From: a virus
Lineage: Duplodnaviria > Heunggongvirae > Uroviricota > Caudoviricetes
DNA: 42,539 bases
IMG/VR virus record: IMGVR_UViG_2897341779_000003
Strand: one strand, 5' to 3'
The notes below the pieces were generated by a model. That model worked only from the letters and a program-made list of their open reading frames with translations. It did not search any database and was not told where the DNA came from. Positions 4,064 through 42,539 of the stretch are shown piece by piece (positions within the stretch are counted from its first letter, which is position 1; the number at the start of each line of letters is the position of its first letter). The position numbers were made by a program, and so were the translations under genes.

Positions 4064-4335
4064 GTATTCGTATTGAAATTGGCGAACGTTATGTCGTTAC
4101 CAGTGACAGCTTTCAGTTTATTCTCCACGAGAAAAAGAGAGCGGAAAGCGGTAAAAACGCCGGTCAGGAATGGCTGGCGGTGGTTGGTTATTACCCGAAA
4201 TTAAGCCAGCTCGTTTCCGGCCTGATGCATCACGATATTCTGACCGGAAGCGCAAAGTCTTTTGCTGATTTAAACGCGCAGGTTGAGCAACTCAGCAAGC
4301 GTTGTTCAGAGGCTTTTGGCTCATATGGCCGTTAA
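4060..4335 (+). CDS. early operon small protein (orf83 position), 91 aa
   Basis: ORF with RBS; overlaps the start of A. Confidence 0.5.
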   Translation: MSIRIEIGERYVVTSDSFQFILHEKKRAESGKNAGQEWLAVVGYYPKLSQLVSGLMHHDILTGSAKSFADLNAQVEQLSKRCSEAFGSYGR

Positions 4336-6616
4336 AGCCTCCGGGCGTTTTGTCCCTCCGTCAGCATTTACCGCAGGCACCGGTAAGACGTTTACCGGTG
4401 CTTATGCATGGAACGCGCCACGCGAGGCCGTCGGGCGCGAAAGACCCCTTACACGTGACGAGATGCGTCAGGTGCAAGGTGTTTTATCCACGATTAACCG
4501 CCTGCCTTACTTTTTGCGCTCGCTGTTTACTTCACGCTATGACTACATCCGGCGCAATAAAAGCCCGGTGCACGGGTTTTATTTCCTCACATCCACTTTT
4601 CAGCGTCGTTTATGGCCGCGCATTGAGCGTGTGAATCAGCGCCATGAAATGAACACCGACGCGTCGTTGCTGTTTCTGGCAGAGCGTGACCATTATGCGC
4701 GTCTGCCGGGGATGAATGATAAGGAGCTGAAAAAGTTTGCCGCCCGTATCTCATCGCAGCTTTTCATGATGTATGAGGAACTCTGCGATGCCTGGGTGGA
4801 TGCGCATGGCGAAAAAGAATCGCTGTTTACGGATGAGGCGCAGGCTCACCTCTATGGTCATGTTGCTGGCGCTGCACGTGCTTTCAATATTTCCCCGCTC
4901 TACTGGAAAAAATACCGTAAAGGACAGATGACCACGAGGCAGGCATATTCTGCCATTGCCCGCCTGTTTAACGATGAGTGGTGGATTAGTCAGCTTAAAG
5001 GCCAGCGTATGCGCTGGCATGAGGCGTTACTGATTGCTGTCGGGGAGGTCAATAAAGACCGTTCACCTTATGCCAGTAAACATGCCATTCGTGATGTGCG
5101 TGCACGCCGCCAGGCAAATCTGGAATTTCTTAAATCGTGTGACCTTGAAAACAGGGAAACCGGCGAACGCATCGACCTTATCAGTAAGGTGATGGGCAGT
5201 ATTTCTAATCCTGAAATTCGCCGGATGGAGCTGATGAACACCATTGCCGGTATTGAGCGTTACGCCGCCGCAGAGGGTGATGTGGGGATGTTTATCACGC
5301 TTACCGCGCCGTCAAAGTATCACCCGACACGTCAGGTCGGAAAAGGCGAAAGTAAAACCGTCCAGCTAAATCACGGCTGGAACGATGAGGCATTTAATCC
5401 AAAGGATGCGCAGCGTTATCTCTGCCATATCTGGAGCCTGATGCGCACGGCATTCAAGGATAATGATTTACAGGTCTACGGTTTGCGTGTCGTCGAGCCA
5501 CACCACGACGGAACGCCGCACTGGCATATGATGCTTTTTTGTAATCCACGCCAGCGTAACCAGATTATCGAAATCATGCGTCGCTATGCGCTCAAAGAGG
5601 ATGGCGACGAAAGAGGAGCCGCGCGAAACCGTTTTCAGGCAAAACATCTTAACCGGGGCGGTGCTGCGGGGTATATCGCAAAATACATCTCAAAAAACAT
5701 CGATGGCTATGCACTGGATGGTCAGCTCGATAATGATACCGGCAGGCCGCTGAAAGATACTGCTGCGGCTGTTACCGCATGGGCGTCAACGTGGCGAATT
5801 CCGCAATTTAAAACGGTTGGCCTGCCGACAATGGGGGCTTACCGTGAACTACGCAAATTGCCTCGCGGCGTCAGTATTGCTGATGAGTTTGACGAACGCG
5901 TCGAGGCTGCTCGCGCTGCCGCAGACAGTGGTGATTTTGCGTTGTATATCAGCGCGCAGGGTGGGGCAAATGTCCCGCGCGATTGTCAGACTGTCAGGGT
6001 TGCCCGTAGCCCGTCGGATGACGTTAACGAGTACGAGGAAGAAGTCGAGAGAGTGGTCGGCATTTACGCGCCGCATCTCGGCGCGCGTCATATTCATATC
6101 ACCAGAACGACGGACTGGCGCATTGTGCCGAAAGTTCCGGTCGTTGAGCCTTTGACTTTAAAAAGCGGCATCGCCGCGCCTCGGAGTCCTGTCAATAACT
6201 GTGGAAAGCTCACCGGTGGTGATACTTCGTTACCGGCTCCCACACCTTCTGAGCACGCCGCAGCAGTGCTTAATCTGGTTGATGACGGTGTTATTGAATG
6301 GAATGAACCGGAGGTCGTGAGGGCGCTCAGGGGCGCATTAAAATACGACCTGAGAACGCCAAACCGTCAGCAAAGAAACGGAAGCCCGTTAAAACCGCAT
6401 GAAATTGCACCATCTGCCAGACTGACCAGGTCTGAACGATTGCAAATCACCCGTATCCGCGTTGACCTTGCTCAGAACGGTATCATGCCGCAGCGATGGG
6501 AGCTTGAGGCGCTGGCGCGTGGAGCGACCGTAAATTATGACGGGAAAAAATTCACGTATCCGGTCGCTGATGGTTGGGGGGGATTCATAGGGCGCTTTGA
6601 TTTTTTCTGTGTTTGA
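4325..6616 (+). CDS. A: replication initiation protein A (rolling-circle nicking endonuclease), about 763 aa
   Basis: Large ORF at the A position; N-terminus MAVKASGRF from ATG 4325 (the ORF-track start 4283 is TTG); size matches P2 A (about 761 aa). Confidence 0.85.
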   Translation: MAVKASGRFVPPSAFTAGTGKTFTGAYAWNAPREAVGRERPLTRDEMRQVQGVLSTINRLPYFLRSLFTSRYDYIRRNKSPVHGFYFLTSTFQRRLWPRIERVNQRHEMNTDASLLFLAERDHYARLPGMNDKELKKFAARISSQLFMMYEELCDAWVDAHGEKESLFTDEAQAHLYGHVAGAARAFNISPLYWKKYRKGQMTTRQAYSAIARLFNDEWWISQLKGQRMRWHEALLIAVGEVNKDRSPYASKHAIRDVRARRQANLEFLKSCDLENRETGERIDLISKVMGSISNPEIRRMELMNTIAGIERYAAAEGDVGMFITLTAPSKYHPTRQVGKGESKTVQLNHGWNDEAFNPKDAQRYLCHIWSLMRTAFKDNDLQVYGLRVVEPHHDGTPHWHMMLFCNPRQRNQIIEIMRRYALKEDGDERGAARNRFQAKHLNRGGAAGYIAKYISKNIDGYALDGQLDNDTGRPLKDTAAAVTAWASTWRIPQFKTVGLPTMGAYRELRKLPRGVSIADEFDERVEAARAAADSGDFALYISAQGGANVPRDCQTVRVARSPSDDVNEYEEEVERVVGIYAPHLGARHIHITRTTDWRIVPKVPVVEPLTLKSGIAAPRSPVNNCGKLTGGDTSLPAPTPSEHAAAVLNLVDDGVIEWNEPEVVRALRGALKYDLRTPNRQQRNGSPLKPHEIAPSARLTRSERLQITRIRVDLAQNGIMPQRWELEALARGATVNYDGKKFTYPVADGWGGFIGRFDFFCV

Positions 6617-6839: not shown

Positions 6840-7169
6840 CTAAGCGGTAACGTTTTCCTCTTCTAGTTCGTCCATCATTTTTAAATAATGCATTTCGTCA
6901 CCAGTAGCTGAAAATATTGTTCTCAATTGTTTTAGGTATTTATCTGGGTCTATGTCGCCCATATCAGTAATATTTACCGCATCAGAGTGAGAACCTCTGT
7001 TAATGTATCTGTAGAATGCTTTGAAATCACTGTTGCTATCGTCGCGTGCCAACTTTGTTAATTCATCTTGTAGAGCATCTGTTCTATGAACAAATGCAAA
7101 ATAATATTCTAGTATGTTTCTCATAATATTCGGTATTATGATTTTGTTTGCTTTGCTGCGTATTTTCAT
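6840..7169 (-). pseudogene. 3' fragment (108-109 codons) of the IS-interrupted RloC/PrrC-like gene; candidate nuclease domain
   Basis: Reading frame is continuous with the 9706-11643 ORF once the IS is removed; contains R-x3-E (RNILE) followed by a downstream His, reminiscent of the anticodon-nuclease Arg-Glu-His triad; AT-rich. Confidence 0.55.
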
Positions 7170-7349
7170 GAAAGGAGATCACTCAATAACTTCCATCGAG
7201 ATCGGGTAATAACATTTGAACAGATCGCTGAATAACATCGATGGAGATCACTTTTGACTCATTTTGTTATTCAGTGATCTCCATCAATGTTATTGGAACT
7301 TCACAGGTGTGTTGATCTGTATCTTTTGCCATTCCGGTAAAGGATACCT

Positions 7350-8891
7350 ATGCCAACAGTTCCAATTTCTATGAGAAAACTTAAAGAAATTCTTAGGCTT
7401 AAATACGGTGTTGGACTCAGCCATCGACAAATTGGTCGTAGTCTTGCAATCTCCCCTTCCGTTGTATCCAGATATGCTAATCGGGCGGCTCAACTTGGCA
7501 TAAAGCAGTGGCCCTTACCTACAGGATGGGATGATACAAAACTAAAACATGCGTTCCTTCAGACCCAGGTTAAGATGAAGAAGCACTCTCTGCCTGACTG
7601 GGCTACAGTACACCGGGAACTGCGTAATAAATGCGTGACGCTGCAGCTACTCTGGGAAGAATACTGTGAGCGTAATCCAGGCGGTTTTTACAGCTATAAC
7701 CATTACTGCCGGATGTACCGTGAATGGCTCAAAACCACTTCACCATCAATGCGTCAGGTACATAAAGCTGGCGAAAAACTTTTCGTTGATTACTGTGGAC
7801 CTACCGTTGGCGTTACCGACCCTGAGACCGGAGAAATAAGAACTGCTCAGGTCATCGTAGCTGTTCTCGGGGCATCAAGTTACACATGGGCAGAGGCCAC
7901 CTGGTCTCAGCAGCTTGAAGACTGGGTGATGAGTCATGTTCGCTGCTTCCAGTGGTTGGGTGGCGTTCCTGAACTTGTTGTTCCGGACAATCTGAAAAGC
8001 GCCACATCCAGGGCATGTAAGTATGATCCTGACGTTAACCCTACCTACCAGCAGATGCTTGAGCATTATAATGTCGCAGTTTTGCCTGCGCGGCCACGTA
8101 AACCGAAAGATAAAGCCAAAGCTGAAGTTGGCGTTCAGGTTGTTGAACGCTGGATCATGGCCCGAATCAGGCATGAGATCTTCTACAGCCTTGCATCGCT
8201 TAATCAGCGCATTCGGGAGTTGCTGGAAAGACTGAATAACAAAATAATGCAGAAGTTGGGTTATTCACGTGCAGAACTCTTCATCCAGCTTGATAAACCC
8301 GCACTGAAGCCTCTTCCTGAAGCCAGTTACAGTTACACCCTGGTGAAGAAAGTCAGAGTTCATGCCGATTACCACGTGGAAATCGACAAACATTACTACT
8401 CGGTTCCATGTTCGCTGTTAGGCCAGCAACTGGAAGCATGGATCTCCGGAGAACTGGTAAGACTCTTCAATCAGGGGCAGGAGGTTGCTGTGCACCCGCG
8501 CAAGCGTACTTATGGCTACAGTACCCGCAACGAGCACATGCCTGAAGCTCATCGACAGCATGCCACCTGGACGCCAGAGCGTCTTCTGGAATGGGCGGGG
8601 CACATAGGCAGTGAAACTCATAGTTATGTGCTTCATATACTGAACTCTCGTCCACATCCGGAACAAAGCTATCGCTTCTGCCTTGGACTCCTGAACCTTC
8701 ATAAAAAATACAGTAAAGCCAGACTTAATGCAGCATGTGCAAGAGCTCTGAAAACAAAGGTATGGCGTCTGTCAGGTATTAAATCGATCCTGGAAAAAGG
8801 TCTGGATAAACAACCTGTTCAGGATCCAAAACCAGATCTGTTATCCACGATGGAACACGAAAACGTACGCGGCAGTGAGTATTACCACTGA
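7350..8891 (+). CDS. istA: IS21-family transposase IstA (513 aa)
   Basis: N-terminal HTH, integrase-core-like middle region; followed by istB with a short gap. Confidence 0.85.
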   Translation: MPTVPISMRKLKEILRLKYGVGLSHRQIGRSLAISPSVVSRYANRAAQLGIKQWPLPTGWDDTKLKHAFLQTQVKMKKHSLPDWATVHRELRNKCVTLQLLWEEYCERNPGGFYSYNHYCRMYREWLKTTSPSMRQVHKAGEKLFVDYCGPTVGVTDPETGEIRTAQVIVAVLGASSYTWAEATWSQQLEDWVMSHVRCFQWLGGVPELVVPDNLKSATSRACKYDPDVNPTYQQMLEHYNVAVLPARPRKPKDKAKAEVGVQVVERWIMARIRHEIFYSLASLNQRIRELLERLNNKIMQKLGYSRAELFIQLDKPALKPLPEASYSYTLVKKVRVHADYHVEIDKHYYSVPCSLLGQQLEAWISGELVRLFNQGQEVAVHPRKRTYGYSTRNEHMPEAHRQHATWTPERLLEWAGHIGSETHSYVLHILNSRPHPEQSYRFCLGLLNLHKKYSKARLNAACARALKTKVWRLSGIKSILEKGLDKQPVQDPKPDLLSTMEHENVRGSEYYH

Positions 8892-8902
8892 TACGGGATC
8901 CA

Positions 8903-9652
8903 ATGATGAATCATCTTTACGAACAACTGACCGCACTTAAACTCACCGGCTTCCGTGATGCGCTTAAAAAGCAACTTGCTCAGCCGGGCACATACCAGGA
9001 GCTGGGCTTCGAAGAACGCCTGTCATTACTGACAGCAGAAGAACTAACCTGCCGTGAAAACAGGAAGGCAGAGCGTCTGATCAAACATGCACGGTTCAGA
9101 CTTAATGCTGAGTTATCAAAGCTGGATTATCGTAACAATAGAGGGCTGGACAGGGCCCTCATCCGTTCACTCAGTCAGGGAAACTGGTTAACCCTGAAAC
9201 AAAATATTTTACTGACCGGGGCCACCGGCAGCGGTAAAACGTTCCTGGCATGTGCACTTGGTCATAATGCCTGCCGACAGGGATACAAGGTCTACTATTA
9301 TCGCCTTAAAGCGCTGATGGAACAGTGCTATCAGGGGCATGCTGATGGAAGATACAGCAAACTTTTGACCAGGCTGAATAATAGCGATCTGCTGCTTCTG
9401 GATGACTGGGGGCTGGAACCTCTCTCATCAGAACAGCGTAGCGACCTGCTGGAAATAGTGGATCTGATGTACCAACGAGGCTCAATCATCGTAGTGAGCC
9501 AGTTGCCGGTGGAAAACTGGTACAAAATGATCGGAGACTCCACACATGCGGATGCCATCCTAGATCGACTGGTTCATGGCAGTATCAAGATCGAACTTAA
9601 AGGAGAATCAATGCGGAAAATACAATCACCGTTGACCGAAGGAGATCAGTGA
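8903..9652 (+). CDS. istB: IS21-family helper ATPase IstB (249 aa)
   Basis: Walker A LLTGATGSGKTF and Walker B LLLLDDWG; DnaC-like architecture typical of IstB. Confidence 0.85.
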   Translation: MMNHLYEQLTALKLTGFRDALKKQLAQPGTYQELGFEERLSLLTAEELTCRENRKAERLIKHARFRLNAELSKLDYRNNRGLDRALIRSLSQGNWLTLKQNILLTGATGSGKTFLACALGHNACRQGYKVYYYRLKALMEQCYQGHADGRYSKLLTRLNNSDLLLLDDWGLEPLSSEQRSDLLEIVDLMYQRGSIIVVSQLPVENWYKMIGDSTHADAILDRLVHGSIKIELKGESMRKIQSPLTEGDQ

Positions 9653-9705
9653 AGGTAATTTAAAAACGGTTCTGTGAAAGTGACACGAACCGATCTCCAT
9701 CGATG

Positions 9706-11643
9706 TTACTCACCGATCTCCTTCACGGTAATACGCACTTTGCCATCTTTTGCATCTTTTAATATTTGCCACAAAGATTGATATTCATTCTGTATGCTGT
9801 TTTTTTGTATTTCAGTAATTATACTAAAATCATTTTTCGTTACTCTACCTAGATAATAGTTTTTCTTAAATAGTTTGTCTTCTCTGCTTTTAGGAGATAG
9901 CTTAATAAGTTCATGAAAGAAATAAAGATTGTGAGTAAGGATTAATACCTTCTTTGTTAATTCATTTTTTATAATGTGGTGATGAATAATTGATGCGATG
10001 TCGTAGACATAGTTTTGCGATAGACTAGATATTGGATCGTCAATAACAATAAAAATATCCCTGCTATCGGTATCATTTTTATCGGTTTTACCTTTACAGC
10101 ACTCTAAAAAATAAAGAAACGTTATTAGTGTTTTTTCACCTTCGCTAAGAGATCTATAAACATTTTGGTTTTTTGTATGCCCTGGTCGAGATATAATGTA
10201 CATATCTTTTCTTTCTGCATGTTTTTCAATACAAAAACCAGAGATCCCTAGATTTTTTAAATGGGTGTTTATTGAGTCTATCGTAGAATCAATGTTAGAT
10301 ATTTTATCTCGCAATGCTTTTATTGTGAGATTATTTTCTTTTCCTTGTTGCTCAATATTATTTAATTCATCATGAACTTTCTTTTTGATATCAAAGAATT
10401 TTTCTTTGTGTTTGGATAAATTCTCTAAATCATCGCTGCAAAAAGCATGGAGAGCCCCCCAAACTTGTTTTCCGATTTTATTCTCATACTCTTTGAGTTT
10501 TTTAACCTTATCATTTATGTCTCTTATTTTCTTGTTAACAGCGCCTATGCTTTCCTGAACATGATTTTCTAGTTCTTTATCAATTTCTAATGTAACGCAT
10601 GTTGATGGATTGTTGATCTTATCAATAATGTTTATTAAATTTTTTTCTGCAATGTTTTGCAATATTTTAATATTGGAAATAATGTTCTCTTTATCTTTCT
10701 CATTGATTAGTGCACATGATGATATATTGTTTTGTATTTCGTTAAAATGATATATGGTATTTTTCTCATAAACTGACTTTATATCTGAGAGCTGTTTTAC
10801 TTTCTTTGAATAACTTTCGTCAAATATTGATTTAAGGGCATTTAAAAATTCGTGACTAATAGTTTTTTCCTGACAAAACGGACATGTAGAACCGTCTAAA
10901 TAATGTTCTTTACCTTTTTTTACCCAGTCAAGATTATGAAGTTTATTAATGGTTTCTGATAAATAGCTATTGCTTGTATCTATTATAGGTGTTGCTAATG
11001 TATTTACATCATCAATTGATGGGGTATATGGATGTAAAGGAGTTATTAATGCGGTTTCATTGTTTCTATTTTCTAATAGTATAGAGTATTCTTTTGCTAT
11101 ATCATTTAAATTAATAAAGGTGATTGGTGAGGATGATTTTATCATCTCAAAAAAAGGTCTTTTATAGCCAACTTTACCTTTCATTAAGGTTTTTAGTACA
11201 GAGTTTCTGATTGGTTCTGTTTTTTTCCAGATCGATTCGATGTATTCATTTTCTTTTTTTTCCATTTCTGCTTCTAATTTCAATAACACTCCTTTTTTTT
11301 GTCTATATTGCTCTGTGAGTTGCTGTTTAATTGCTTCTTTTTCAATTAATTGTTTTTCAATATCTGCATTTTCTTTACTTAATGTAAAAACACCTTTTTG
11401 TTCCTGTGCATTATAGAAGTTATCTTCAATAAATTTAGTGTTGTAAACAAGAGGTTTGTAATTGTCAAGAAGGGTACATTCACACTCGTTATAATCTGTG
11501 TGTGTAGAGTCGTAGAAATAATTTGAAATGGTAGATTTGCCACAACCATTTTGGCCGTATAGTATGTTTACTCTTTTTTCAAGATTCAGTATTGTGAAGG
11601 CGTCTTTCTTATAACTGGTAACATTTTTTAATCTAAGTTCCAT
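9706..11643 (-). pseudogene. 5' portion (about 639 native codons) of a Rad50/ABC-type ATPase with CxxC hook, RloC/PrrC-like candidate defence gene, truncated by the IS
   Basis: Walker A GQNGCGKST, coiled-coil-like stretches, CPFCQ, ABC-signature-like LSEGEK, Walker B IFIVIDDP, H-loop LILTHN; the last 6 codons and the stop derive from the IS end; about 30% GC. Confidence 0.6.
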
Positions 11644-11958: not shown

Positions 11959-11977
11959 GGCGAGGCGGGGAAAGCAC
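11959..11977. other. cos site (19-nt P2-type cohesive end sequence)
   Basis: GGCGAGGCGGGGAAAGCAC, located between the accessory slot and Q as in P2. Confidence 0.7.
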
Positions 11978-12146: not shown

Positions 12147-13181
12147 TCAGCCGTTGTCAGTGTCCAGTGAGTAGTTTTTAAAGCGGATGACCTCCTGACC
12201 GAGCCAGCCGTTTATTTCCCGAATCCTGTCCTGTAGCGGGATAAGTTCATTGCGGACAAAGACCTTTGCCACTTTCTCAATATCACCCAGAGACCCGACG
12301 TTTTCCGGCTTGCCGCCCATCAACTGAAAGGGGATGCGGTGCGCATCCAGCAGGTCAACGGCGCTGGCTTTTTTGATATTAAAAAAATCGTCCTTCGTCG
12401 CCACTTCACTGAGCGGGATAATTTTAATGCCGTCGGCTTTCCCCTGTGGGGCATAGAGAAACAGGTTTTTAAAGTTATTGCGGCCTTTCGACTTCACCAT
12501 GTTTTCGCGAAGCATTTCGATATCGTTGCGGTCCTGCACGGCATCGGTGACGTACATGATGTATCCGGCATGCGCGCCGTTTTCGTAATACTTGCGGCGG
12601 AACAGCGTGGCCGACTCATTCAGCCAGGCAGAGTTAAGGGCGCTGAGATATTCCGGCAGGCCGTACAGCTCCTGATTAATATCCGGCTCCAGCAGGTGAA
12701 ACACGGAACCGGGCGCGAAAGGTGTCGGCTCGTTGAAGGACGGCACCCACCAGTAAACATCCTCCTCCACGCCACGGCGGGTATATTTTGCCGGTGAGGT
12801 TTCCAGTCTGATGATCTTACCGGTGGTGCTGTAACGCTTTTCCAGAAACGCATTACCGAACACCAGAAAATCCAGCACAAAGCGGCTGAAATCCTGTTGC
12901 GAAAGCCACGGATGCGGGATAAATGTCGAGGCCAGAATATTGCGTTTAACGTAAATCGGTGAGCTGTGATGCACGGCAGCACGCAGGCTTTTCGCCAGAC
13001 CGGTAAAGCTGACCGGCGGCTCATACCATCTGCCGTTACTGATGCACTCGACGTAATCCAGAATGTCACGGCGGTCGAGTACCGGCACCGGCTCACCAAA
13101 GGTGAATGCCTCCATTTTCGGGGCGCTGGCGGTCATTTTTTTTGCCGCAGGTTGCGGTGTTTTCCCTTTTTTCTTGCTCAT
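12147..13181 (-). CDS. Q: portal protein (344 aa)
   Basis: 344 aa as in P2 gpQ; first gene after cos, co-oriented with P; ATGA overlap with the P stop. Confidence 0.9.
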   Translation of the reverse strand: MSKKKGKTPQPAAKKMTASAPKMEAFTFGEPVPVLDRRDILDYVECISNGRWYEPPVSFTGLAKSLRAAVHHSSPIYVKRNILASTFIPHPWLSQQDFSRFVLDFLVFGNAFLEKRYSTTGKIIRLETSPAKYTRRGVEEDVYWWVPSFNEPTPFAPGSVFHLLEPDINQELYGLPEYLSALNSAWLNESATLFRRKYYENGAHAGYIMYVTDAVQDRNDIEMLRENMVKSKGRNNFKNLFLYAPQGKADGIKIIPLSEVATKDDFFNIKKASAVDLLDAHRIPFQLMGGKPENVGSLGDIEKVAKVFVRNELIPLQDRIREINGWLGQEVIRFKNYSLDTDNG

Positions 13182-27501: not shown

Positions 27502-28344
27502 ATGAAAAAAGAATTGTTTGGACGTTGCCCGTTTGATCTTGACGAAGATGTAAAAAAAATAGCCGCGATAAATAAATATATCCATGCAAAATTTGAGGAG
27601 CATAAAAATAAAATAGACAACCTAAAGGGTGTGGAACAAAAATTGATGGTCTTACAGTACTTTAATGTACTGAATGAACTTAGTAATCAGGCTATCTCTT
27701 CTTTGAATATAGGAGCCTTTTCAGCATCGGAAGTATTAGCTAGGGTTATAATAGAACAGGCTGCCAATCAATTTTATATAGCAATAGATGATGGCGAAAA
27801 TGCACAAGCATTACTCAAGGCTAGTAAGAAATTAGTTCATAGTAATGGAAAACGGTGGCTGGAGTGTTTAAAATCCAAAGGAATGACTAATCCAGCAGCA
27901 AATGAAAGGATTCGCATGGGAAAAGAACTAACTGATCTATTTAATAGATTGTGGCCAAATACACCTGAATATCCAGGAACCAGAAGACTTTTTGAATTAA
28001 TTGGCTGGGAAACACACTATCATGCCCATTACGTTCCCCTTTGTGATTCAATACATACATTCTCTGATGATATGGTAAATATAGTATCTCTATATAATGC
28101 AATCCAAAGTGATGAAAATACTGCTATCGAATTCATTCTTGCAGTTAAACAAGAAAATAAACGGCTGGCAATTTATAATTTTGTAATTGCTACGGCCCTT
28201 CGGTGTGAGGCCTTAGTAAATGTATTTAACTCTTTAGGTTATCAGGATATTATAACAGAAATGACACCAACAATAGATACAGTCAACCAGACTATAATTC
28301 GATATGATGATTTTGATCATTCCAGAATTGATGATTGTCAATAA
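27502..28344 (+). CDS. hypothetical protein (280 aa), AT-rich cargo gene; candidate phage-defence or superinfection-exclusion effector
   Basis: RBS AGGAG 7 nt before the ATG; candidate -10 TATAAT at 27458-27463; no confidently recognised domain; C-terminal R-x5-H (RYDDFDH). Confidence 0.6.
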   Translation: MKKELFGRCPFDLDEDVKKIAAINKYIHAKFEEHKNKIDNLKGVEQKLMVLQYFNVLNELSNQAISSLNIGAFSASEVLARVIIEQAANQFYIAIDDGENAQALLKASKKLVHSNGKRWLECLKSKGMTNPAANERIRMGKELTDLFNRLWPNTPEYPGTRRLFELIGWETHYHAHYVPLCDSIHTFSDDMVNIVSLYNAIQSDENTAIEFILAVKQENKRLAIYNFVIATALRCEALVNVFNSLGYQDIITEMTPTIDTVNQTIIRYDDFDHSRIDDCQ

Positions 28345-28450
28345 TTAATTGACAGAATACGTACATGCGCAACAACTAGTGATAGTTGACTTATTTTCGC
28401 TCTTGAGAGACAACCATACTCAAATCTCCCACATTGCAGGAGATTTGAAT

Positions 28451-29035
28451 ATGAAAACGTCACCGTGGAATAAAGACCGTACCATCGGTCAAAAAAGGCC
28501 ACTTCAGATATTTCATATCTGGGGGATCCGGATTAGACTTGAGTTGGAAGGTAAAACACGCGATCTAGCTCTGTTCAACATGGCTTTGGACACTAAGCTA
28601 CGGGGCTGTGATTTGGTCAAACTCAAAGTATCAGATGCTGCATATGGCAGTTCTGTCTCAAGCAGAGCAACGGTGTTGCAACAGAAAACCGGCAGCCCTG
28701 TCCAATTTGAGATAACCAAAGGGACAAGGGAAGCGGTTACTGCATTGATAAAGCTCGGCAACTGGCATAGTAAAGGCTTCCTGTTCCGCTCTCGGGTCGG
28801 AACTAACCACCATATATCAACCCGGCAATACAACCGAATTTTTCATGGGTGGGTAGAAAAGCTTGGTCTCGAAGATTCGCTGTACAGCACACATTCCATG
28901 AGAAGAACAAAACCTTACTTAATCTACAAGAAAACCAAGAGTCTCCGGGTGATCCAACTTCTGTTGGGCCATAAGAAACTGGAAAGCACAGTCCGTTATT
29001 TGGGCATTGAAGTCGATATAGAAGGTCTCTTTTAA
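28451..29035 (+). CDS. small tyrosine recombinase, catalytic domain only (about 194 aa), FimB/FimE-like
   Basis: Catalytic residues present in order: Arg (LRGCDL), Lys (QQKTG), His-x-x-Arg (HSMRRT), His (LLGHKK), Tyr (VRYLG); RBS AGGAG before ATG 28451; no N-terminal DNA-binding domain. Confidence 0.7.
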   Translation: MKTSPWNKDRTIGQKRPLQIFHIWGIRIRLELEGKTRDLALFNMALDTKLRGCDLVKLKVSDAAYGSSVSSRATVLQQKTGSPVQFEITKGTREAVTALIKLGNWHSKGFLFRSRVGTNHHISTRQYNRIFHGWVEKLGLEDSLYSTHSMRRTKPYLIYKKTKSLRVIQLLLGHKKLESTVRYLGIEVDIEGLF

Positions 29036-36640: not shown

Positions 36641-38002
36641 TCACTTACCGTGGGGGTTACGCGTGGTTTCCCCGGAGAAATTACGCATCAGCAGCGCGTA
36701 ATTTAGCTCAAGATCCTGCGGCACCGGGAGCCACACAGTATAACCATCGCCTGGTGCGACCGGCATCGCTTCACCTTTGGCGTTTTCCATATGCTCAAGG
36801 GTAAAGTTAATGTTGCCTTGCGGCGTCATCAGCTCAAGGCTGTCGCCAACGGAGAATTTATTTTTCACCGCTACCGCCGCGAGCTCCCCCTTGCGCTCAC
36901 CGGTAAACTCACCAACAAACTGCTGGCGGTCAGAAACCGAATAACCGTATTCGTAGTTCTGATAATCGTCGTGGGTATGACGACGCAGGAAACCTTCGGT
37001 ATAGCCACGATGCGCCAGACCTTCCAGCGTTTCCAGCAGGCTGGTATCGAACGGTTTGCCCGCAGCGGCGTCATCGATAGCTTTACGGTAAACCTGCGCG
37101 GTGCGTGCGCAATAGTAGAAAGATTTGGTACGGCCTTCGATTTTCAGCGAATGCACGCCCATTTTGGTCAGGCGTTCAACATGGGCGATGGCGCGCAGAT
37201 CTTTCGAGTTCATGATGTAAGTGCCGTGCTCATCTTCAAACGCGGTCATATACTCGCCCGGACGCTGGGCTTCTTCGATCATAAACACTTTGTCGGTTGG
37301 CGCGCCGATACCCAGCGTCGGCTCAACATTTTGCACCGGAATCGGCTCGTACTTGTGTACGATGTTGCCGACGTCATCTTCTTTCCCTTCCTGGACATTG
37401 TACTCCCAGCGGCAGGCGTTGGTGCAGGTGCCCTGGTTCGGGTCGCGCTTGTTGATATAGCCAGAGAGCAGGCAGCGACCGGAGTAGGCCATGCACAGCG
37501 CGCCGTGAACGAAGATTTCGATCTCCATATCCGGCACCTGATTGCGGATCTCTTCAATCTCTTCCAGTGACAGTTCGCGAGAGAGGATCACGCGGGTCAG
37601 ACCCATTTGCTGCCAGAATTTCACCGTCGCCCAGTTTACGGCGTTAGCCTGTACCGAGAGGTGGATTGGCATTTCCGGGAAGTGTTCACGCACCAGCATA
37701 ATCAGCCCTGGATCGGACATAATCAGCGCATCCGGCCCCATTTCCACCACCGGTTTCAGGTCACGGATAAAGGTTTTCAGCTTGGCGTTGTGCGGTGCAA
37801 TGTTGACCACGACATAAAACTTTTTCCCCAGCGCGTGGGCTTCATTGATGCCGAGCTGAAGATTTTCGTGGTTGAATTCGTTGTTGCGTACACGCAGGGA
37901 GTAACGCGGCTGGCCCGCATAAACAGCATCTGCGCCATAAGCGAAAGCGTAACGCATATTTTTCAGCGTTCCCGCCGGGGAAAGGAGTTCCGGTTTAAAC
38001 AT
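36641..38002 (-). CDS. yegQ: U32-family peptidase/hydroxylase, YegQ-like (453 aa)
   Basis: 453-aa ORF with RBS GAGAG; host-like GC content; U32 family and yegQ identity recalled from the N-terminus MFKPELLSPAGTLKNMRYAF and its position next to CyaR. Confidence 0.75.
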   Translation of the reverse strand: MFKPELLSPAGTLKNMRYAFAYGADAVYAGQPRYSLRVRNNEFNHENLQLGINEAHALGKKFYVVVNIAPHNAKLKTFIRDLKPVVEMGPDALIMSDPGLIMLVREHFPEMPIHLSVQANAVNWATVKFWQQMGLTRVILSRELSLEEIEEIRNQVPDMEIEIFVHGALCMAYSGRCLLSGYINKRDPNQGTCTNACRWEYNVQEGKEDDVGNIVHKYEPIPVQNVEPTLGIGAPTDKVFMIEEAQRPGEYMTAFEDEHGTYIMNSKDLRAIAHVERLTKMGVHSLKIEGRTKSFYYCARTAQVYRKAIDDAAAGKPFDTSLLETLEGLAHRGYTEGFLRRHTHDDYQNYEYGYSVSDRQQFVGEFTGERKGELAAVAVKNKFSVGDSLELMTPQGNINFTLEHMENAKGEAMPVAPGDGYTVWLPVPQDLELNYALLMRNFSGETTRNPHGK

Positions 38003-38489
38003 AATTCTCTCGTTCTGATGACAGGTCAGAGCCGCTTCACCTGATGAAGCGGTTAGGGGAGTGCCCCCACTTTAAGGGCGGGCATTGTAGCGCAATCGGC
38101 GGGTTTAGCTCCAGTGTAAATGTGAGGGGAGAAGTGGCAGAGATGGGAGTATCTACACGAAATCTTCATGTAGTGATAAAAGAAAAAGTTGACGATACTG
38201 ACTACTTTCCTGAATGTTCATCCCCTGATAATTATGAATGTATTTGCCGTCCTCTTACAGCCTGAATTATTGAGGATGTAAAATAATGTCATTTATCTCA
38301 ATTATTCACTAAAATAAACTGCAAATATAAGACATAATTTCCAAAGTTTGTGACGCTGCCACTATTGAGTTTACGTTATTTTCTTGAGTGGCTTACTTGA
38401 GTATGTACCTGCAACCATGCTGATTTAGATAAAAAATCTATAGTCAACAATTATTGCTTTGAGTGATATAATAAACACGGGCGGATGTT

Positions 38490-39704
38490 ATGACTGGAAA
38501 TATTCACCAGAATTATAATGCAAGGGATGTAATTAATGCCCCGGAAGTAAAAACAGCAATTTTGCAAAGAAGTCTGTTTCGCCAGGATAATGAGACCATC
38601 CAAAAATGGTTACTCAACCATTTTTATCGATGGCTAATTAGTGACTTTCCAATGGTGCAACAAATTAACTCGCTTGCAGAATATTCACTGTTTAATAAAA
38701 ATGATGATGTAATCCCGGAATGGCTGGTATCGAAGTTTAATACTGCCTCAGTATCAACTGCGACACTTTATTATATCGAAACCGATCATCAACAAATATT
38801 AACCAAAGAACGGGAGTTGGTGGAATTTCTTTCCAGGAAATGTGGTACCCGTCTGGAATCAAAACTACAGCGCATAACCTGCTACGTTGCGTTCAGAATG
38901 CGTGAAGAAGAGCATGAAAAGATGCTTCAACGACGCGAGAAAGGGTGGCAGCCGAGTGAACAAAATACTGTAAAGTCAATACTTGATGTGCCAGACGGAA
39001 AAATTGTTGAGTTTGATGCCAGTCATTCGAACCTTCGTCGTGAAATGGCTTATGAATCATGGCATATGCAACATTGCGTAGGCCAGTTTGATGATCGAAA
39101 AAATCTTACCGGTGGTTATGGTGAGTATTATGCAAATCAAATTGAGCAACATAAATTACGGTTATTCAGTTTGCGTGATAATAATAATATTCCTCATGTT
39201 ACTATTGCTCTCAATGTTGTTGGTGATTCACTTGAAATTGATCAAATAAAAGGTAAGCAAAATCGTCATCCAGTTAAAAAATATGCGGACGATGTTTTGT
39301 CTCTTTTGCAACTATTATCACCACAAGCAGTTCGACATAGTGATTGTGAAGGTATGGGTATTGTTTATGAAAATACACCTGAATATCAGGGGTGGAAATA
39401 TGTAACGGAAGTATACGAAACCAGTTTTTTACTAAGCGTACTACATAATAACTTTCATTTATTAGAACATTTTACAAATCCTTCAGTGGAGTTGCAGTGG
39501 TTACTGTTACACAGCGCACCTGATAAGTTACATTATCTTAATGCTATTGACCCTATAGTTGCTACTTCTGCGGAAATGTTATTCCCTGGCGCTGAGTGGC
39601 ATCCGCAATTTGCAGGTCAAAATATCAGCAACATTTCCTTTGAGATAGAGAGTTTGACATTACAGACATCTCATTACTTACCCCTGTCAGAGGTTGAAAA
39701 ATAA
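38490..39704 (+). CDS. hypothetical protein (404 aa), first gene of an AT-rich three-gene operon
   Basis: Long ORF with candidate sigma70 promoter (-35 TCAACA 38444-38449, -10 TATAAT 38467-38472); stop overlaps the next start (TAATG). Confidence 0.6.
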   Translation: MTGNIHQNYNARDVINAPEVKTAILQRSLFRQDNETIQKWLLNHFYRWLISDFPMVQQINSLAEYSLFNKNDDVIPEWLVSKFNTASVSTATLYYIETDHQQILTKERELVEFLSRKCGTRLESKLQRITCYVAFRMREEEHEKMLQRREKGWQPSEQNTVKSILDVPDGKIVEFDASHSNLRREMAYESWHMQHCVGQFDDRKNLTGGYGEYYANQIEQHKLRLFSLRDNNNIPHVTIALNVVGDSLEIDQIKGKQNRHPVKKYADDVLSLLQLLSPQAVRHSDCEGMGIVYENTPEYQGWKYVTEVYETSFLLSVLHNNFHLLEHFTNPSVELQWLLLHSAPDKLHYLNAIDPIVATSAEMLFPGAEWHPQFAGQNISNISFEIESLTLQTSHYLPLSEVEK

Positions 39705-40420
39705 TGAGTCTTATCATTGTTCTCCTGGTCGCAATATTTATTTTTATCTATAGATACAAAAAAAACAAACCACAAATCGATGCTTTTATTGCTAAAGAAA
39801 AAGAAAAGGATCTAATCAAGGACAAAAGACGAGCAACAAAGAGACGTAAGTGGGCATTAGCAATTGGTGATATAGTTGCTCGTCGTAATGGACTGTCAGT
39901 AAATGGCTTCACGTTAGATTTAAAGTTGACTGATGATAAGCGTCAACAACTTGCACTACAGGTTAAACAAGAGCTAGGAACAGAAACTTACCAAAGCAAC
40001 GAAGATTTCCGTCAACAAATTGGCGTTATATTACAGCGCTGGGCTACAGGGCTTGGTAATTCTCCACATGATTTTTACGAACAACTGGCAGCACAAGGCC
40101 AGGTTCTGGATGGGCTGGCGTTTGACTGTATGCGCACTGCTTTTTTAACTCGTTGCATCGCCGGTTTAGGCTGGTGCGATGAAAACCAGGCCTGGATAGT
40201 GTTATTACTGAATGCTCAAAGAGCACAAGATTGTTTCGCTTCATGGGAAGATTATGCCAGTGCTTATGTTCGCGCCCGACAAAAATGGTTAATGATATAC
40301 GATACCCCCGTCGCCACTGCGAACCGTGATTTAAAGGAAGTCACTGCATGGTTGAAAGATCCATCCAGTAACTGGAAAAAATTGCCGTGGAATGAATTTA
40401 AAATTTTTGAACCTAATTAA
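39704..40420 (+). CDS. hypothetical membrane-anchored protein (238 aa)
   Basis: N-terminal transmembrane helix (LIIVLLVAIFIFIY) followed by a basic linker; translationally coupled to the upstream gene; family (possibly DUF1266-like) is uncertain. Confidence 0.6.
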   Translation: MSLIIVLLVAIFIFIYRYKKNKPQIDAFIAKEKEKDLIKDKRRATKRRKWALAIGDIVARRNGLSVNGFTLDLKLTDDKRQQLALQVKQELGTETYQSNEDFRQQIGVILQRWATGLGNSPHDFYEQLAAQGQVLDGLAFDCMRTAFLTRCIAGLGWCDENQAWIVLLLNAQRAQDCFASWEDYASAYVRARQKWLMIYDTPVATANRDLKEVTAWLKDPSSNWKKLPWNEFKIFEPN

Positions 40421-40430
40421 AAGGATATCT

Positions 40431-42539
40431 ATGGAACAGGATGCTCGTTTACTCAGTGCAATGCAAAAGATGTGTGACCAAAAAATGCCACTTAATACTC
40501 TTGAGAGAAAATGGCAAATCGCAAATATTCCTTATATGTTACAAGAAAAACGTTATCAGGAACTAGATGAAATTTATAACCAGGTATTACAGGAGAGTTT
40601 CACTTCTCGTCAGGCTGAAAAGCGCTATTTTTTATCCTGGACCCAAATGTGCAACTATTTTTATGATATGAACACGCTAGTTGATGCCGGAACAGAAGGT
40701 TTAAGACTCATTAAAACCTGGCAGCAAGCAAGACCTCATTCTACACATGCCTGGCTTGCCGAAGCACAATACTGGAATCACCGTGCATGGTTATATCGCA
40801 GTTATGGCTGGGCAAATGATACCACACATGCAATGTGGCTTTGTGCTGGTGCATGTAATGAACAAATGGTCATCGCTACACTTAAAGCAATTGATTGTGA
40901 CCCACGACAATGGATGGCTGCATTACTTACCAGCACCAACTCAAAAGTATTTGGTCAGCCAGCCTGGCTGGCGGCACACCTTAACGGTGATAGTGTCGCA
41001 GGAATACCATTAATGATCGCACTGAAAAATTATCACCGCCGCTCCCCGCAAGAAGTGGAAGCGTTGATGGCGTATTCCGGACTTTCGTTTGAGCATGCAA
41101 TATGCCCCGTTTTGCCTCGCCCCAATATACTTCCTGAGTATGATGATGATGGTGGGCAAAAATATTGGCTTTCTGTTTGCCTGACTATTTTTCCTCACAC
41201 TTTTTATCCTTTTGTTGAATATATACCATTTCGAATGCCACGCTGGGGAGGGTCGCATAAAGAAATTTCCGAATTGCTGGATTCAGTAACCTGTAAGCAC
41301 TTATCTACCGAAGAACATGACTATATGGATCTCTTACTTTGGTGGGATGATTACCGAGATGTCAGCATTGAGGACATTGCGCCCGAGGAGCAACAATATG
41401 CAATCGACTTAGCAGAGAATATTGCTCAGTACGCACAATTTCAGGAATGTCGCCATAATGCCCTAGAGTGGTTACTTGCCTGCTATAACAAGCAGAACGA
41501 TCACGATAAGTTGTGGTGCTGTATACAGCGAGCGGTGATGGAAGACATGAAGCTCAATAATTATTACACTGCGTACGCGATAAAATTTGCATTAAGTTAT
41601 TATCCAGATTCATTCTGGATATATAATTTTATCTGCCAAAATTCACAGAATACAACTTATGCTACACCTGTTATTTATAGGGGGTTTTTCCAGCGAGAGG
41701 GTATTTTGGGTTTTGAAAAAGATGAAGGGCAGGGCGATGCTTGGCTGGAAAAAGCTAGTGACATTAAATACAATCATAATTGGCGGTCGGCAATAAAAGA
41801 TTTGAGTTGGTTTGACCTTTCTGATTATTTCATTCCGCTTGCGACAATTGGTAAGCAAAGAAATATTCCTGCCGCATTAAATTTAGTTGCTCTTGAATAT
41901 TTGGATAAGGAAGACAATACAAAATTACCTTATGAACCATCTACAGCTTTGGAGTATTTTCGACGGGCACTTAAAATACTTCAAGATGACCTAAATTTCC
42001 ATAGCTCGGTATCTTATCCACTGGTAAAAAATTATGGTTATAGCGAACATCAACAAGATCTACAAAATATTTATTTTAGCATTGCTATCTGCTACCAGGC
42101 ACTAAATAAACAAGAAATTTCTAAAGAAACACGGGCTATTTATGAAAAAAATCTCCTTGACAATTTATTTCTGGCTCATGAAGCTGGACATGAAAAAGCA
42201 TGGGGGCTTTTTTTACTTAATATCTTTGAGGTGAAAGAACTCTCACTTGCTCATTTGCACCTCCAACAGGTACAAGAAGAAGCGAATAAAGGTACGCTCG
42301 AAGCAATGATTACTTTGTCGCGCCTGTATGGTAACAAAGAAGATGAAAAACTGTTTAACATGAAACTCAGTGCGCGCTGGACACATTTTGCCGAGTCTTT
42401 ATATCCAGATAACGAAATTATTGCAGATTGCCTTTATCATCTCCATTTCTCCAGCCTGTGGAAACGCTGTCGTTATGCCTGGTATACCTTTCGTATTCCA
42501 GCTAGCGAATTACCCGGCCAGGTTAACAGTATGGTGTAA
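40431..42539 (+). CDS. hypothetical protein (about 702 aa), Trp-rich N-terminal region and a TPR/Sel1-like C-terminal region
   Basis: ATG 40431 preceded by AAGGA; the ORF-track start 40392 is in the same frame and overlaps the previous gene; TAA stop at the window end. Confidence 0.6.
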   Translation: MEQDARLLSAMQKMCDQKMPLNTLERKWQIANIPYMLQEKRYQELDEIYNQVLQESFTSRQAEKRYFLSWTQMCNYFYDMNTLVDAGTEGLRLIKTWQQARPHSTHAWLAEAQYWNHRAWLYRSYGWANDTTHAMWLCAGACNEQMVIATLKAIDCDPRQWMAALLTSTNSKVFGQPAWLAAHLNGDSVAGIPLMIALKNYHRRSPQEVEALMAYSGLSFEHAICPVLPRPNILPEYDDDGGQKYWLSVCLTIFPHTFYPFVEYIPFRMPRWGGSHKEISELLDSVTCKHLSTEEHDYMDLLLWWDDYRDVSIEDIAPEEQQYAIDLAENIAQYAQFQECRHNALEWLLACYNKQNDHDKLWCCIQRAVMEDMKLNNYYTAYAIKFALSYYPDSFWIYNFICQNSQNTTYATPVIYRGFFQREGILGFEKDEGQGDAWLEKASDIKYNHNWRSAIKDLSWFDLSDYFIPLATIGKQRNIPAALNLVALEYLDKEDNTKLPYEPSTALEYFRRALKILQDDLNFHSSVSYPLVKNYGYSEHQQDLQNIYFSIAICYQALNKQEISKETRAIYEKNLLDNLFLAHEAGHEKAWGLFLLNIFEVKELSLAHLHLQQVQEEANKGTLEAMITLSRLYGNKEDEKLFNMKLSARWTHFAESLYPDNEIIADCLYHLHFSSLWKRCRYAWYTFRIPASELPGQVNSMV

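Follow-up and report, generated by a model that had tools for sequence, protein, structure and literature searches.

RloC, described from Geobacillus kaustophilus and Acinetobacter baylyi, cuts the wobble nucleotide out of tRNA, and its anticodon nuclease (ACNase) activity is switched by a DNA-dependent ATPase; in the G. kaustophilus protein the release signal is DNA ends together with ATP hydrolysis, and mutations in the hook make the nuclease constitutive (PMC2610378, PMC3458546). The published C-terminal signature of RloC is Arg-X3-Glu-X36-52-His, often with Ser preceding the His (PMC2610378). In the classification of Anantharaman et al. (2013), "PrrC/RloC/APECO1_4465" form a set of fusions between an ATP-binding cassette (ABC) ATPase and a HEPN domain, and the APECO1_4465 group, with its prototype from E. 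coli APEC O1, is located in prophages (PMC3710099). Phage P2 carries accessory genes between its replication gene A and its cos site, a slot occupied in the reference phage by old and tin (PMC9122126). Here we analyze a stretch of 42,539 nucleotides (hereafter the window; IMG/VR virus record IMGVR_UViG_2897341779_000003) that contains a P2-like prophage of E. coli JCM 20135, whose A-cos hotspot holds a gene for an RloC-like protein that is interrupted by the insertion sequence (IS) ISEc12.

The gene had been proposed in an earlier note, by motif recognition, to encode a candidate ACNase resembling RloC and PrrC. Our results support that assignment, and we consider it probable that the locus is hotspot cargo encoding an RloC-like ABC-HEPN protein that serves as a phage-triggered, tRNA-cutting abortive defence, disrupted in this copy. 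An RloC-like reading of the P2-hotspot gene is already in print, and the novelty of the assignment is low: Rousset et al. (2022) list WP_000423308 (AAA_13) among the P2-hotspot loci (Table S5A), and system 5 of their Table S5B, "AAA_13", with 420 occurrences in the E. coli P2 hotspot, bears the note "RloC-like" (PMC9122126). The representative of that system is a different allele, and the window holds an IS-disrupted copy. From the gi number (117623091) and the gene order in the genome we infer that APECO1_4465 is probably the same protein as WP_000423308. PADLOC lists the class as a candidate system. The file of cloned constructs of Rousset et al. contains no AAA_13 or RloC string (PMC9122126), and we found no published test of the activity, trigger or substrate of the P2-hotspot RloC-like subfamily.

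Compared with these systems, the window protein is closest to RloC, with which it shares, in the same order, an ABC head, a helical insert with a CxxC motif and a C-terminal R-X3-E-X36-52-(S)H (PMC2610378, PMC3458546). Both are encoded by stand-alone genes with no linked restriction-modification locus, and both belong to Pfam AAA_13. The window protein differs from RloC in matching the PADLOC model PDLC04886 and not PDLC04887, in sharing only 17-22% identity with RloC-like proteins, in being about 55 residues shorter, in its carriage by the P2 A-cos hotspot, and in a modelled insert whose part N-terminal to the CxxC is predicted to form short helices and not one long coil. The best description is that it belongs to a subfamily of its own among the RloC-like proteins, one of shorter members. 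PrrC, the E. coli tRNA-Lys ACNase, has its signature, Walker B, H-loop and catalytic R/E/H residues in the same order as the window protein; however, it is about 396 residues long with no coiled-coil/CxxC insert, and its gene lies within a type Ic hsd locus, which keeps it silent. Since the 738-residue window protein has a 375-residue insert and its gene lacks hsd linkage, it is not a PrrC. Rad50/SbcC proteins have an adjacent Mre11/SbcD and no fused RNase, whereas the window protein has no such neighbour and carries a fused C-terminal domain. The Old protein of P2 is alike in its slot, in being single-gene phage-exclusion cargo and in its N-terminal ABC-type ATPase, but its effector is a TOPRIM DNase domain, in contrast to the helical HEPN-like domain predicted here.

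Results

An RloC-like gene split by ISEc12

The 645-codon open reading frame (ORF) reported at positions 9706-11643 on the minus strand is present, and every motif that the earlier note had listed was located in it, all on the minus strand: Walker A, GQNGCGKST (residues 30-38; 11530-11556); CPFC, a candidate zinc hook (residues 254-257; 10873-10884); the ABC signature LSEGEK (residues 499-504; 10132-10149); a Walker B/D-loop, IFIVIDDP (residues 530-537; 10033-10056); and the H-loop LILTHN (residues 567-572; 9928-9945). The native 5' part of the gene, which codes for the ABC ATPase head and helical insert, spans 9738-11643 on the minus strand (codons 1-635 and the first base of codon 636). The C-terminal fragment lies apart from it, as a 109-codon ORF at 6840-7169 on the same strand, of which 6840-7151 (codons 636-738 and the stop) is the native 3' part, coding for the putative catalytic helices of a HEPN-like nuclease domain.

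The gene is split between codons 635 and 636 by ISEc12, an element of the IS21 family named as in the RefSeq annotation of the source genome, E. coli JCM 20135. The 2581-bp element lies at 7157-9737 on the plus strand, has terminal inverted repeats that begin TGCGTATT, and includes istA (7350-8891) and istB (8903-9652). It is flanked by a 6-bp target-site duplication, CTTTGC, at 7151-7156 and 9738-9743, and intact alleles of the RloC-like gene align from position 9738 onward. Removal of ISEc12 and one copy of CTTTGC in silico produced a single ORF of 738 codons with no internal stop, the product of which matches WP_000423308.1 of E. coli APEC O1 at 100% identity. The length of 748 residues given previously for the intact protein is thus corrected to 738; it was too long by 10 because the IS ends supply the last 10 codons of the 645-codon ORF (VRITVKEIGE, non-native and IS-encoded together with the stop at 9706-9737, minus strand) and the first five of the 109-codon ORF (MKIRS), and because K635 is duplicated by the target-site repeat.

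In the JCM 20135 window the gene is most likely inactive, since its 645-residue, ATPase-bearing product lacks N643, R646, E650 and H690. The ATG and first codons (MKIRS) of the 109-codon ORF come from the left end of ISEc12 (7157-7169), so that translation of a free HEPN-like fragment is conceivable. RefSeq presents the two pieces as separate "AAA family ATPase" coding sequences (WP_077759295.1 and WP_029130957.1), not as a pseudogene. Over 2583 bp, this copy of ISEc12 shows 100% identity with insertions found in four Escherichia phage PhiR12 records (PV340549-PV340553), and the JCM 20135 chromosome has about 4 sites that match the end of the element.

Family assignment and conservation

Profile searches, which had been suggested beforehand for the reconstructed protein, were run on the two pieces and showed that the C-terminal fragment continues the same profile as the large piece, with AAA_13 matched over its full length. 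The large piece covers positions 11-630 of the 713 in AAA_13 (PF13166; E = 1.4e-93) and the fragment positions 632-713 (E = 2.8e-12), so that the two lie end to end, and the score of 315 bits compares with a cut-off of 36. The PADLOC model PDLC04886 of PDC-S06 was also matched (691 bits), with E = 4.7e-208 for the large piece and 7.1e-42 for the fragment, which together cover positions 4-634 and 630-724 of 727. Neither piece matched a family in NCBIfam.

Among 5.8 billion proteins searched, 118 relatives were identified. Most belong to Enterobacteriaceae and share 52-66% identity, the less similar ones being spread over many phyla; several are labelled "wobble nucleotide-excising tRNase" by their sources. 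Conservation was assessed in an alignment of 62 sequences with identity down to 17%. Invariant in this alignment are G30, G35 and K36 of the Walker A region, both CPFC cysteines (C254 and C257, in 62/62), G502, E503, D535, D536, T570 and H571 of the ATPase core, and N643 and R646 of the C-terminal domain, while E650, S689, H690, H723, Y724 and M727 are conserved in at least 90% of the homologues. The last three form an HYxxMM motif (residues 723-727; approximately 6876-6890, minus strand) that is nearly invariant family-wide and lies C-terminal to the catalytic triad.

Other defence families with related ATPases (OLD/TOPRIM, Lamassu LmuB, PARIS AriA and retron PtuA) were considered and rejected in view of weak, ATPase-level matches and the absence of their partner genes; there was also no TOPRIM hit in Pfam or PADLOC.

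The C-terminal domain resembles the nuclease domain of RloC and PrrC

In the C-terminal fragment are the helix N643-x2-R646-N-I-L-E650 (7107-7130, minus strand) and, further on, R683-x5-S689-H690 (6987-7010, minus strand). The fragment reads R-N-I-L-E, 39 residues, then S-H, which is the published RloC signature in the form R646-x3-E650-x39-H690, with S689 directly before the His. The HEPN pattern Rx4-6H is also present, as R683-x6-H690, and is found in most homologues, with Ser replacing R683 in one clade. The earlier note had pointed to an R-x3-E followed by a His in this fragment; the residues are indeed there, but the bare pattern is weak evidence by itself, as 9% of shuffled versions of the last 140 residues contain R-x3-E-x36-52-H (0.7% if a Ser is required before the His). 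We therefore did not rely on the pattern, the weight coming instead from conservation and profile alignment, and tested the homology of the domain directly.

For the comparison with PrrC we used an E. coli PrrC sequence that was validated in three ways: it scored 489 bits against the PADLOC PrrC model, it has the triad residues R320, E324 and H356, and it is 93% identical to the representative of one cluster in a family that NCBI calls "anticodon nuclease". Alignment of the whole family with PrrC by hhalign gave a probability of 95.3% (E = 2e-8) and was colinear from the signature through Walker B and the H-loop to R646/R320, E650/E324 and H690/H356. The contexts of the catalytic residues are closely similar, MRNILE in the family against LRNLYE in PrrC, and YRYINRGSHS against SRIINFTSHS. 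The C-terminal domain alone produced the same alignment with PrrC, but with a P of only 0.012-0.02. PrrC itself passes the AAA_13 threshold, its residues 154-357 falling on profile positions 486-687, which overlap the region of the window's C-terminal fragment; the PADLOC PrrC model matches the window protein only at residues 490-609.

A stronger match for the C-terminal domain alone was obtained with a group of proteins of about 795 residues (hhalign probability 96.7%, E = 3.4e-10, 115 columns). We call this group RloC-like on the basis of its landmark positions and the COG-type names in the source records, G. kaustophilus RloC itself not being included in it. Its landmarks (K42, C294/C297, D575 and R699/E703/H744) are within a few residues of those published for G. 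kaustophilus RloC, namely K44, C291, D572 and R692/E696/H737 (PMC2610378, PMC3458546), and the PADLOC PrrC model also hits this group, the match extending through the nuclease region. A genome scan with the RloC-like alignment recovered 80 loci from many phyla, with neither G. kaustophilus nor A. baylyi among them. A best match to some other ATPase family, with a C-terminal fragment matching no nuclease domain, had been named in advance as the outcome that would speak against the assignment; what was seen is the AAA_13 hit and the match of the C-terminal domain to the RloC-like group.

Predicted structure and the CPFC motif

The full-length AlphaFold2 model (mean predicted local distance difference test score 84) suggests ATPase lobes at residues 1-89 and ~465-611, an insert of ~375 residues between them (90-464), and a C-terminal domain at approximately residues 612-738. 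The insert is mostly helical in the model, with CPFC about 20 residues from its sequence midpoint. Helices 90-141 and 403-448 resemble a stalk leaving and re-entering the head, and flank a distal module of ~260 residues in which ~105 residues of short helices precede CPFC and four long helices follow it. In the secondary structure of the model, CPFC is part of a loop at residues 249-263, with helix 238-248 before it and helix 264-273 after it. The C-P-x-C form is also found in Rad50 hooks, and this form, together with the invariance of both cysteines, argues for a metal site.

The best Foldseek matches in the PDB were Rad50 in Mre11-Rad50 complexes, SMC heads, Lamassu LmuB, retron PtuA-type ATPases and AriA; the C-terminal domain matched generic helical bundles only (E>0.4). 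No PrrC or RloC structure was found in the PDB by sequence or fold search. A phmmer search of PDB sequences with the intact protein found nothing at E<=1, and a profile search of the PDB returned the P-loop and signature stretches of SMC/Rad50 proteins and coiled-coil noise, with no nuclease match.

Genomic setting in the P2-like prophage

The gene lies where P2 carries old and tin, as had been claimed: to its left is the P2 gene A-type replication endonuclease (4283-6616, plus strand), and the right border of the hotspot is the P2 cos 19-mer GGCGAGGCGGGGAAAGCAC at 11959-11977 (plus strand). The 19-mer matches the window with 0 mismatches, compared with 0 matches in 100 shuffles. Beyond cos lie the portal gene Q (12147-13181, minus strand) and then the terminase gene P. 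Both pieces of the RloC-like gene have a GC content of 29-35%, against 53-56% in the phage genes. The gene is the single gene in the APEC O1 hotspot, and neither that hotspot nor the window locus contains an Mre11/SbcD or LmuA partner gene. There are no hsd genes near it (its neighbours being gene A, cos and Q) and no tRNA genes in the window, and a promoter scan upstream of it gave sites no more numerous than in shuffles.

Elsewhere in the prophage, a second low-GC cargo locus at 27502-29035 (plus strand), flanked by the tail-fibre genes and by the gene for the sheath, corresponds to the P2 Z/fun position. It encodes a 280-residue DUF5677 protein (PF18928, 8e-10) followed by a 228-residue tyrosine recombinase-family protein (PF00589, 1.5e-17), neither of which has a PADLOC match. 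Past the right prophage end (36641-42539) there is a minus-strand, yegQ-like gene for a U32 peptidase, and after it a low-GC block with PcfJ-like, DUF1266 and DUF4034 proteins. In K-12 a P2 remnant (ogrK-yegZ) adjoins yegQ, and the full prophage here may fill the same attachment locus as that remnant. The source record (NZ_AP043894.1), a genome of 4.90 Mb with a complete P2-like prophage, gives the isolation source as "feces from diphtheria convalescent", which is the classical description of the origin of K-12.

Distribution and disrupted alleles

The gene is present at 80% coverage or more in 43 of 5,426 complete E. coli genomes. The junction between the IS and the gene (7117-7196) occurs only in JCM 20135 among these genomes, and in other public assemblies and sequencing runs the 109-codon fragment stands beside the same IS on at least 23 contigs (for example GCA_900706755.1, GCA_049309725.1 and DRR003147); the disrupted allele is therefore a lineage marker or belongs to a repeatedly sequenced stock. 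In E. coli and Salmonella the family has many truncated or split alleles, including N-terminal losses without Walker A and forms of 425-607 residues on contigs longer than 5 Mb, and at some loci two "AAA family ATPase" coding sequences underlie one match. This suggests recurrent inactivation of the gene family, although many short members are just partial genes at contig ends. Homologues also occur in Enterobacter phage ENT4 (65% identity) and in Streptococcus Javan prophages, the latter bearing the annotation "translation-disabling ACNase".

Discussion

The evidence gathered here places the split gene of the window in a published class of prophage-borne ABC-HEPN candidates. We infer a mechanism by homology with RloC and PrrC, based on properties demonstrated for G. 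kaustophilus RloC (PMC2610378, PMC3458546), in which the intact protein would dimerise via its ABC head, and the ATPase together with the CxxC module, acting as a zinc hook, would hold the RNase silent. A phage-associated signal would flip this switch and free the RNase, which would presumably cut tRNA anticodon loops; translation would then stop, and the infection would be aborted to the benefit of the lysogen population.

Several other functions could be served by a protein of this kind. The architecture may be as described and the effector an RNase other than an anticodon nuclease, one that cuts mRNA, rRNA or another RNA in response to a trigger unlike that of RloC. HEPN RNases do have diverse substrates (PMC3710099), the low identity and shorter length that separate the subfamily from RloC-like proteins leave room for such divergence, and the likeness of the C-terminal domain to PrrC is weak outside the catalytic motifs; yet within those motifs the context is closely shared, as RN(I/L)xE and R-x-IN-x-x-SHS, and we regard this alternative as unlikely. 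A more distant reading would drop enzymatic activity from the C-terminal domain altogether and take the protein for a DNA-binding SMC ATPase like Rad50/SbcC or Lamassu LmuB. It would account for the Rad50, SMC and LmuB heads among the best Foldseek matches and for a weak PADLOC match to LmuB (1.8e-12), but the PDC-S06 score beats that of LmuB by about 195 orders of magnitude, the locus has no Mre11/SbcD or LmuA partner, and the N, R, E and S-H residues of the C-terminal domain are nearly invariant and align with the PrrC catalytic triad, which makes this reading highly improbable.

The gene might also act as a toxin/addiction-type module, or as a lysogenic-conversion factor that stabilises the prophage, instead of defending against other phages. 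Some P2-hotspot cargo is indeed non-defensive, such as partition systems and cytolethal distending toxin (PMC9122126), and the recurrence of truncated or split alleles in complete genomes fits a costly toxic gene. An antitoxin partner is absent, however, the gene standing alone in the APEC O1 hotspot; RloC and PrrC bring their own silencing ATPase domain, and the family was flagged by defence-island statistics in PADLOC. An addiction or conversion role thus appears quite improbable, and a phage-triggered abortive defence by an RloC-like ABC-HEPN protein remains our preferred interpretation.

It is tempting to speculate that the PDLC04886-type subfamily is not just a short form of RloC. Its distal module, which is modelled as other than a plain coiled coil, could together with the invariant CPFC respond to another kind of phage signal, its HEPN domain could have another RNA as target, and a measurable autoimmunity cost, which lysogens escape time and again, could lie behind the recurrence of IS, frameshift and truncation alleles in E. 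coli and Salmonella; we put this forward tentatively, as a combination of proposals that is rather doubtful at present.

The window copy, being disrupted, adds little to the understanding of the family; its one use would be as a naturally occurring control allele that lacks the nuclease. What the analysis does provide is confirmation of a call first made from motifs alone, by which the gene joins the published class of prophage-borne RloC-like candidates. If the intact allele is an anticodon nuclease, the P2 arsenal would gain a common single-gene, tRNA-targeting abortive-infection system, and this would offer a tractable E. coli model for the activation switch of RloC.
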